Shown: piece after piece, positions 4,135 to 5,160 of the stretch | How the letters are laid out: every line of letters begins with the position of its first letter | Numbering within the stretch: position 1 is the stretch's first letter | Assembly (NCBI GenBank): GCA_041746235.1 | Contig: JBGTHN010000322.1 | Span: forward strand, 1 to 27,270 | Length of the DNA stretch: 27,270 bases | Origin: Pyrinomonadaceae bacterium | GTDB lineage: Bacteria; Acidobacteriota; Blastocatellia; Pyrinomonadales; Pyrinomonadaceae | Direction: 5' to 3' | Made by a program: the position numbers and the translations under genes | Notes under the pieces: generated by a model | Database searches by the model: none | Told to the model about the DNA's origin: nothing | What the model saw: the letters and a program-made list of their open reading frames with translations, nothing else

Positions 4135-4162
4135 AAGTGGCAAAAATTCGTTGGAAATTTCA
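4135..4162 (-). promoter_or_regulatory. Copy 2 of a bipartite 28-bp motif, candidate ECF promoter upstream of the DUF3592 gene
   Basis: Minus strand TGAAATTTCCAACGAATTTTTGCCACTT; 22/28 identical to 5133-5160. Confidence 0.55.
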
Positions 4163-4182
4163 CGCGGGTTGAAAATTATTTT

Positions 4183-5112
4183 TTATTTTTTCTGACGATT
4201 GACGCGGAAAGTGTATTCGGAGATTGATTCGGCGGGGTTTTCGTTGGTTTTGCCTTCGAGGAAAATTATGTAGGTTTGGGCAGAAAGTTTGTCGGCGGGA
4301 AGATTGAAGTTTGGGGATTTGAGGTTTTGAAATGTAGCAATGGTTTCGCCGTCGGCGGTTTTTATGGTGGCGTTGTAGGTTTGATATTTTGGCGAATCTT
4401 CGGGCAGGGAAAGTTTTAGGTTGACGGTTATTGTATCGGGATTTAAACGAATTGATTGTTCGCCGTTGCTTCGCAGACTGCCGGGCAGAAGTGTGAAAGT
4501 GGCGAAAACGGGTTTTGATTGTTCTTGAGTTTTTGGTGAAACGTCGGTTTTTGGTGCGGGCGTTGGCGAAGGTTTGATGTTGATATTTTCATTCGGCGAC
4601 GGCGAAGTTTGCGGAGTTTCATTGGTGGAATTTTGGTTTGAAATTTCCATTTCGTTTCGGTTTTCTGTAATTTTTGAGTCGTCGGAATTGGTGGTTTTCA
4701 ATTCGGCAAAATCTTTTTCGGTGTTTGAATTCAGCCAGAAAATAAAACCGATGCCGAATAATAAAACGGCTAAACCGCCCATTGCCAATGCTTTTGAAAA
4801 TTGAAAATATGCCGCCAATGCTTGCCGGAAGCCTTGTTTTTCGGAGGTCTTTTCTGTTTTGAAAACGTCCAAAAAGTTTTGTGCCAACGCTACTTTTTTT
4901 CTGCGTTCTTCCGTAATCAGATAATTTTTTTCAAACGCATCAAGTTCCGACGCAGAAAGATTTCTACGCAGGAATTGTTCGATGAGTTCGCTTTCGACCA
5001 TCTGTGCTTGCTCGAAAAGCGTTTCATCAAGGGCAAATTCTTCTTCAAACGTGGAGTTTTCCGCTTGGTTTAGTTTGCCGAGAAAGTATTTTTTTATTTT
5101 ATCGTCGTTCAT
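4183..5112 (-). CDS. Transmembrane anti-sigma factor-like protein (helical N-domain, TM, S/T/P-rich linker, beta-rich C-domain)
   Basis: 309 aa, directly downstream of the ECF sigma. N-terminal YFLGKL...ESELIEQFLRRNLSASELDAFEKNYL without Zn-ligand Cys/His, one TM (ALAMGGLAVLLFGIGFIFW), and a PSPTPAP linker. Confidence 0.75.
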   Translation of the reverse strand: MNDDKIKKYFLGKLNQAENSTFEEEFALDETLFEQAQMVESELIEQFLRRNLSASELDAFEKNYLITEERRKKVALAQNFLDVFKTEKTSEKQGFRQALAAYFQFSKALAMGGLAVLLFGIGFIFWLNSNTEKDFAELKTTNSDDSKITENRNEMEISNQNSTNETPQTSPSPNENINIKPSPTPAPKTDVSPKTQEQSKPVFATFTLLPGSLRSNGEQSIRLNPDTITVNLKLSLPEDSPKYQTYNATIKTADGETIATFQNLKSPNFNLPADKLSAQTYIIFLEGKTNENPAESISEYTFRVNRQKK

Positions 5113-5132
5113 TTCGTCGGTCTGTTATTTAT

Positions 5133-5160
5133 AAGTGGCAAAATTTTACCGAAAATTTCA
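5133..5160 (-). promoter_or_regulatory. Copy 1 of a bipartite 28-bp motif, candidate ECF promoter between the sigma stop and the anti-sigma start
   Basis: Minus strand TGAAATTTTCGGTAAAATTTTGCCACTT, ending 20 nt before the ATG at 5112. Confidence 0.55.

Follow-up and report, generated by a model that had tools for sequence, protein, structure and literature searches.

We analyzed a 27,270-nucleotide (nt) stretch of Pyrinomonadaceae DNA (GenBank assembly GCA_041746235.1, contig JBGTHN010000322.1; "the window" below means this whole stretch) in which a 28-nt motif of two conserved blocks occurs twice, once on either side of a gene for a membrane anti-sigma-like protein that follows the gene for a sigma factor of the extracytoplasmic function (ECF) type. 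Relatives from soil and hot springs have retained both copies, P1 and P2, which are therefore most likely a pair of cognate promoters read by the adjacent sigma factor, and we put the probability of this at roughly 0.8. A preliminary description of this DNA, made from its letters alone, had proposed that the motif is a bipartite promoter of the local sigma factor; strong support for the proposal comes from the conservation of the motif, from its spacing and position, and from its covariation with region 4.2 of that sigma factor. The elements concerned are as follows.

5163-5723, minus strand: divergent ECF-type sigma gene; likely start ATG at 5723, longest open reading frame from TTG at 5747
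5133-5160, minus strand: candidate promoter copy 1 (P1), sequence TGAAATTTTCGGTAAAATTTTGCCACTT; -35 block TGAAATTT at 5153-5160, -10 block GCCACTT at 5133-5139; predicted transcription start at ~5125-5130
4183-5112, minus strand: single-pass membrane anti-sigma-like protein (P0002), 309 amino acids (aa)
4135-4162, minus strand: candidate promoter copy 2 (P2), sequence TGAAATTTCCAACGAATTTTTGCCACTT; -35 block TGAAATTT at 4155-4162, -10 block GCCACTT at 4135-4141; predicted transcription start at ~4127-4132

A pattern scan of the window for TGAAATTT-N9-TTTTGCCACTT returned two exact minus-strand matches (5133-5160 and 4135-4162), and these remained the sole matches when up to three mismatches were allowed. 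The copies are identical at 22 of 28 positions, and all six mismatches fall within the central nine (positions 9 to 17). This bears out two statements of the preliminary description, that one motif recurs on the same strand in both gaps and that its identity lies in two blocks around a variable core. Two matches arose in none of 100 dinucleotide shuffles of the window, and the duplication is far beyond chance. P1 occupies the 50-nt gap between the sigma and anti-sigma genes, beginning 2 nt past the sigma stop codon and ending 20 nt from the anti-sigma ATG at 5112. P2 begins 20 nt past the anti-sigma stop codon and ends 89 nt from the next ATG, at 4045, with a predicted leader of ~85 nt that contains a Shine-Dalgarno sequence (AGGAG) ahead of this ATG. 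Beyond P1 and P2, the assembly to which the window belongs, a metagenome-assembled genome of 3.9 Mb (754 contigs, 75% complete, 39% GC), holds no copy at zero or one mismatch and a single copy at two mismatches, on contig C467. A weight matrix made from the orthologous sites described below ranked P1 first in this genome (26.5 bits) and P2 fourth (19.5 bits).

Orthologues of the sigma gene were sought more widely. In 40 relatives there were only sigma paralogues, at ~30% identity; a search through the same family, covering 400 genomes, recovered 25 orthologous loci in 23 genomes and 8 genera, at 39 to 51% identity. Counting the window, 24 loci were usable (23 other Pyrinomonadaceae genomes plus the window), and in every one of them the two-block motif stands in the gap that separates the sigma coding sequence from that of the anti-sigma protein. 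The consensus is (T/C)G(A/T)(A/G)ATTT, a spacer, and wwwYG(A/C)CA(C/T)TTA(T/A), the spacer being 9 nt long at 19 loci and 10 nt long at 5, a range that would be expected of a promoter; the geometry is TGAAAT-N15/16-GNCAC. Over 20 of the sites, the information averages 1.6 bits per column for the -35 block and 1.15 for the -10 block (2.0 to 2.4 at G..CA), compared with 0.26 to 0.46 bits in the flanks and spacer. Of the two blocks given in the preliminary description, TGAAATTT stands and the second is corrected to (Y)G(A/C)CA(C/T)TTA, as its TTTT varies: the TTTT ahead of GCCAC is not kept in the YGTGAT clade, which has AAAC instead. From the end of the orthologous motifs to the anti-sigma start, whose position was taken from tblastn, there are 18 to 45 nt, and a Shine-Dalgarno sequence lies within this interval.

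The motif is also rare outside these loci. Strict TGAAATTT-N13/14-GMCAYT has 3 matches in the whole of G189, a complete single-contig genome, 2 of them at the sigma locus, and the reversed control gave 0. In 3 of 5 genomes of genus g3, the anti-sigma promoter is the sole match to strict GTGATTT-N13/14-GACAYTT. A tally over 401 genomes includes a single two-mismatch match from G222, on which no claim depends. The check proposed in the preliminary description, a scan of the genome and its relatives, thus found a motif that is nearly unique in its own genome and constant at the orthologous sigma/anti-sigma loci. The guess that the DNA is acidobacterial, of the Blastocatellia, was right as well, the family of the orthologues being Pyrinomonadaceae (Acidobacteriota). 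The sigma/anti-sigma pair itself has a patchy distribution, being found in none of the 21 genomes of its own genus yet in 8 other genera of the family, which suggests loss or transfer.

The second copy is conserved too. Each of the 10 TGAAAT-clade loci whose flanking sequence is long enough, the window among them, has it on the same strand immediately past the anti-sigma stop codon. Second copies had been left out of the matrix building, and the matrix was scanned over the loci plus 11- to 15-kb extensions. At a threshold of 17.9 bits, the lowest score observed, the matrix yields 5 background matches over 15.6 million positions of the own genome, and the chance expectation for second copies in those ten search intervals is ~0.001. 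An ECF promoter is expected to have two asymmetric blocks ~16 to 17 nt apart that are directed at a gene, and the pattern TGAAAT-N15/16-GNCAC is present at the 24 P1-type and the 10 P2-type sites, each directed at a start downstream of it.

The -35 block changes together with the DNA-binding part of the adjacent sigma factor. TGAAAT (once TTAAAT) accompanies the region 4.2 helix L-R-(L/V)-K-(I/V)-F-R-L-R and is also found with two variants in genus g28, and (T/C)GTGAT occurs in all 11 loci of genus g3, with the helix L-R-N-R-(V/I)-S-R-(L/I)-R. The pairing (LRLKIFRLR with TGAAAT, LRNRVSRLR with YGTGAT) has no exception in the 24 loci, and such covariation is what a cognate pair of -35 element and sigma region 4 would predict. 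It also bears on the idea that the motif is an operator through which a separate transcription factor, a repressor or an activator, controls the anti-sigma gene and the next gene. A conserved motif at a fixed position would equally suit an operator, and both window copies hold a weak A/T inverted repeat, GAAATT...AATTTT. We consider this reading improbable because the blocks are asymmetric, with the inverted repeat lost in the orthologues, because the spacer varies by 1 nt, and because the left block changes jointly with the region 4.2 helix. In addition, the motif is always directed at a start codon, at a distance of 18 to 90 nt and with the Shine-Dalgarno sequence downstream of the motif, and no conserved regulator gene accompanies it besides those for the sigma and anti-sigma proteins.

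The product of 5163-5723, whose start at ATG 5723 was picked by alignment with the orthologues, matches the NCBIfam models NF058625 (E 3e-12, residues 42 to 192), TIGR02989 (2e-9), and TIGR02937 (3e-5), which cover regions 2 and 4. A weak Sigma70_r4_2 match was found in 5 of 14 orthologues, a region 2 (r2) match in none, and ~10 extra residues seem, by eye in the alignment, to precede the helix-turn-helix of region 4. An anti-sigma-type gene directly 3' of the sigma gene, as expected for an ECF sigma factor, is present in all orthologous loci.

Several observations weigh against a promoter pair that is read by this sigma factor. The matches to the NCBIfam ECF models all fall under their curated cutoffs, Pfam gave zero matches at E 0.01, and a profile search of the PDB gave no sequence match to a solved structure; because the NCBIfam matches span both regions, yet remain below the cutoffs, we call the protein a true but outlying ECF-type sigma factor, one whose homology is clear from its sequence. 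The covariation described above corresponds to one phylogenetic split, and so to a single independent event with no statistic attached. The letters of the blocks (-35 TGAAATTT or YGTGATTT, -10 G(A/C)CA(C/T)TTA) are unlike the commonest ECF consensus, GGAAC and CGTC, which typically shows AAC in its -35 element and CGT in its -10 element. The leader of a P1 transcript would be short and without a clear Shine-Dalgarno sequence. In a simple scan of the window, no sigma70-like site turned up ahead of the sigma gene on its strand, the minus strand. The sequencing runs that hold the locus are all DNA metagenomes (hot spring, soil, and beach sand), with no RNA run among them. Finally, genomes of family f6, of the same class, carry the motif before unrelated genes with no orthologous sigma gene adjoining.

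This last point leads to the question of whether another sigma factor, either a paralogous ECF or the housekeeping one, reads the motif in place of the adjacent sigma factor or together with it. The own genome encodes at least four sigma paralogues at ~30% identity, and some paralogue loci have similar -10 blocks, such as TTTTGACACTAAT on contig C136. Because the motif occurs in another family with no adjacent orthologous sigma gene, its specificity may be shared with other paralogues. On the other side, the -35 block tracks the clade of the adjacent sigma factor, the motif is tied to the sigma/anti-sigma locus in every genome examined, and, as regards the housekeeping sigma factor, the promoters upstream of the sigma orthologues are different (TTGnC-N17-TATAAT). 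We therefore hold it unlikely that the adjacent sigma factor is not the reader, or not the sole one.

Sites resembling the motif were seen elsewhere. In f6 genomes G124 and G197, intergenic sites of the form TGAAATTT-N9-TTCTG(N)CACTTAT (L123:3638, L124:3521, and L125:3680; matrix scores of 20 to 26) lie upstream of genes for a vWA-like protein (L123) and for CHAT-like proteins with the sequence EKIRxLFLAANP (L124 and L125), and the best sigma paralogues there are 30 to 34% identical. Matches at L121 and L122, of the same family, lie inside a conserved coding region and were dismissed as chance. A related motif with a TGTAAC -35 element, TGTAACTT-N9-TTTTGTCACTTAT, is present in noncoding DNA of the own genome (C585:1279-1306, minus strand). 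Another, TGTAACCG-N10-TTTTGACACTAAT on C136, also with TGTAAC, lies between a paralogous sigma gene (228-773) and its anti-sigma gene, ~70 nt past the former; together, these two may mark the regulon of a second paralogue. No tie to the sigma factor at 5163-5723 was established for the C585 site or for the two-mismatch site on C467. Genome G031 has near-identical copies of TGAAATGTTTTTT(G/C)AC(A/G)TTTTGCCACCT at C199:54258-54285 and C14:5548-5575, one right after a paralogous sigma gene and the other on a different contig.

We also considered and rejected a motif common to all of the paralogous sigma factors of ~30% identity. The matrix scored 12.6 at L013 and 8.6 at C136, and a motif-like site was noticed by eye at the L012 paralogue locus; the other 18 paralogue loci have no match, and the claim is therefore limited to the orthologue group of 39 to 51% identity. 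Two further candidates were set aside. Read as a sigma70 -35 element, TTGCCA has no -10 element at 16 to 18 nt in either copy, the sequences TATAAA and TATAAG lying beyond at variable distance. A sigma54 promoter on the plus strand (TGGCA-N..) has, by eye, the wrong TTGC spacing and would point antisense into the anti-sigma gene.

Alternatively, the motif could act in RNA, within one long transcript covering the sigma, anti-sigma, and cargo genes, where it would be a site of processing, serve as a translational operator, or form a structured element; both copies lie in gaps between co-oriented genes with no terminator between them. This is very improbable, since there is no stable or shared fold (z-scores of -0.6, -0.4, +0.95, and -1.7) and no Rfam match at E up to 1. 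Conservation is confined to the two sequence blocks, the spacer being free and without a compensatory pattern, and the distance to the start codon varies from 18 to ~240 nt.

The gene between the two candidate promoters encodes P0002, whose orthologues adjoin the sigma gene on its 3' side in all orthologous loci and share 31 to 49% identity over the full length. Searches of Pfam and NCBIfam and profile searches matched it to no protein family, and its profile found no sequence match among solved structures. The AlphaFold model consists of an N-terminal domain of five helices, a transmembrane helix, a disordered linker rich in Pro and Asn, and a confidently modeled C-terminal beta-sandwich. The N-terminal helical domain comprises residues 1 to 87, and residues 1 to 92 modeled alone again gave five helices, with a predicted local distance difference test (pLDDT) score of 90. 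In a fold search with this domain, to look for the fold of class I anti-sigma domains, the cytoplasmic domains of five ECF anti-sigma factors (RslA, PupR, RskA, RsiW, and MucA) were among the top 50 of 48,161 chains, with matches so weak (Z 3.8 to 4.5, Foldseek E 6 to 10) that they lie within the noise expected of helical bundles. A faint zf-HC2 match (E 0.05) appeared in 3 of 9 orthologues; P0002 itself lacks the HxxxCxxC zinc motif of zinc-associated anti-sigma (ZAS) proteins, and its N-terminal domain has neither Cys nor His. The beta-sandwich (4183-4560, residues ~200 to 306) is modeled with pLDDT above 90 and kept in all orthologues, and it is presumed to be an extracytoplasmic sensor domain. 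A fold search with the whole protein gave generic beta-sandwich matches to this C-terminal domain only, such as azurin and phage baseplate proteins. P0002 is labeled a putative anti-sigma factor on synteny and topology, which support this role, and the fold is consistent with it.

Every gene of the region is encoded on the minus strand; the first two behind P2 are as follows.

3455-4045, minus strand: DUF3592-like two-transmembrane protein (P0003), first gene behind P2
2746-3432, minus strand: secreted protein (P0004) with a signal-peptide-like N terminus, second gene behind P2

P0003 matches Pfam DUF3592 at E 0.001, under the cutoff of that family, and its translation contains two hydrophobic segments. 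P0004 starts 22 nt past P0003, with which it is probably cotranscribed, and three more genes follow, the last encoding a Ser/Thr kinase. Terminator-like sites on the minus strand were absent from the gaps between the sigma, anti-sigma, and next genes, and the two candidates found both lie inside coding regions.

Different loci have nonhomologous genes behind the second copy. No P0003 homologue occupies this position elsewhere, and the other loci have unrelated exported or cytoplasmic proteins there. At two loci, L076 (3107-3260, genome G189) and L084 (3041-3156; a minus-strand locus, with coordinates on the reverse complement), the second copy faces a convergent gene of ~1040 aa that lies ~130 nt off. 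At L076 the stretch past the second copy closes with a hairpin and a T-run, and a short transcript or small RNA that depends on the ECF sigma factor may arise from it. The preliminary description had spoken of downstream envelope genes as targets; as a conserved regulon these do not hold up, given that the genes differ from one orthologous locus to the next and that two loci have a convergent gene instead. Because they differ in this way, we regard the genes behind P2, on comparison of the loci, as lineage-specific cargo and not as a conserved regulon.

Upstream of the sigma gene, the preliminary description had seen no copy of the motif, and this is true more widely: there is none before the sigma gene in the window or its genome, and none reaches 12 bits on the matrix within 1.5 kb upstream in any of the 25 loci. 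Approximately 9 orthologues instead have a conserved TTG(C/T)C-N16/17-(T/G/C)ATAAT some 40 to 80 nt upstream of the sigma start, which by its form would be a housekeeping-type promoter. As the scan of the window itself found none, such a promoter is proposed for the window's sigma gene from its relatives. In several loci (L076:1300-1500, L077, L078, L082, L084 to L087, and L089), the sigma70-like site is preceded by ACAAGT..AAAGTTG, maybe the site of an extra regulator, and many of the loci with a sigma70-like site have a divergently oriented polA-like gene (MSETKPKRVFLIDTMSHIFR).

From these sequences we infer the promoter identity of P1 and P2, their reading by the adjacent sigma factor, the start positions, and the behavior of the circuit. 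RNA polymerase with the sigma factor encoded at 5163-5723 would recognize the -35 block TGAAATTT together with the -10 block G(C/A)CA(C/T)TTA. From P1, transcription of the anti-sigma gene would start ~15 nt ahead of the ATG, and P2 would drive the gene for the DUF3592-like membrane protein and probably that for the secreted protein behind it. The sigma gene itself would presumably be transcribed from a housekeeping-type promoter, with some read-through into the anti-sigma gene. Once the membrane anti-sigma protein lets the sigma factor go, the latter would boost its own inhibitor and a small local cargo, and the outcome would be self-limiting negative feedback with no positive autoregulation. 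A more speculative idea, which we hold only tentatively, is that this strongly divergent, Pyrinomonadaceae-restricted ECF clade is hard-wired for negative feedback alone, with the anti-sigma gene as its sole invariant target and P2 as a portable slot that captures lineage-specific cargo. It is possible, though to our mind doubtful, that the same slot in two genomes yields a transcript of ~100 nt, ending at a terminator that faces the convergent gene, as a candidate ECF-dependent small RNA. On the same speculative view, the natural LRLKIF/TGAAAT and LRNRVS/GTGAT pairs would offer orthogonal ECF design a specificity switch that needs no further engineering.

Taken together, the motif pair is real and conserved, and the proposed circuit is a solid but ordinary one with known precedent. 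The understanding of ECF signaling is unchanged. To our knowledge, almost no ECF regulons have been mapped experimentally in the Acidobacteriota, and the analysis offers a testable promoter consensus, TGAAATTT-N9/10-(Y)G(A/C)CA(C/T)TTA, for an uncharacterized, divergent ECF clade of this phylum. The natural change of the -35 block along with region 4.2 also provides a small, clean case for the study of ECF specificity.

Among known systems, the SigW promoter of Bacillus subtilis has the form TGAAAC-N16-CGTA, and in operons of the SigW, SigX, and SigM type a promoter ahead of the sigma gene provides positive autoregulation. The present locus resembles them in the TGAAA start of the -35 block, the T-rich end of the spacer, and the membrane anti-sigma gene that follows the sigma gene, and the geometry of TGAAAT-N16-CCAC is the same, with 16 nt from the -35 hexamer to the four-base -10 core. 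Unlike them, it has T-T-T rather than C at the end of the -35 block and (G)NCAC in place of CGTA as the -10 core, and no cognate promoter was found upstream of its sigma gene. In Escherichia coli, rpoE has its own sigmaE-dependent promoter, which provides positive feedback, and the rseA promoter lies inside the sigma coding sequence. The rpoE-rseABC system is thus similar in that an ECF-dependent promoter, predicted here, serves the anti-sigma gene directly, and the sigmaE -10 element, GTCAAA, resembles G(A/C)CAC in its G-N-C-A core. Unlike that system, the present locus has no cognate promoter for the sigma gene, and P1 lies in an intergenic gap.

In the ECF classification 2.0, promoters were predicted on the assumption that ECF sigma factors regulate themselves, and none were reported for groups that are not self-regulated (Casas-Pastor et al. 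2021, PMC7826278). Our approach is like that one in deriving a group-specific bipartite motif from conserved noncoding DNA at ECF loci. Given the premise of self-regulation, a motif 3' of the sigma gene would probably escape that search, and groups with their cognate promoter after the sigma gene may be overlooked when motif discovery is confined to DNA 5' of ECF genes.

The proposed circuit has an experimental parallel in the sigH-rshA locus of Corynebacterium glutamicum, which has four housekeeping promoters and a SigH-dependent promoter that drives rshA alone, from which a fast shut-off of the response has been proposed (Busche et al. 2012, PMC3489674). The preliminary description had called the present circuit unusual, a view that gives way before this precedent, as SigH/RshA has the layout proposed here. 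In both loci an ECF-dependent promoter stands right before the anti-sigma gene (the sigma dependence being predicted in our case), and housekeeping-type promoters serve sigH, as is proposed from relatives for the sigma gene in the window. The two differ in the inhibitor, RshA being a small cytoplasmic ZAS protein and P0002 a membrane protein of 309 aa, and in reach, the SigH regulon being large and the regulon predicted here local, with a second copy of the promoter after the anti-sigma gene. A clade-wide layout of this kind, with no self-activation and an induced inhibitor, would carry the SigH/RshA design over to a membrane anti-sigma factor.

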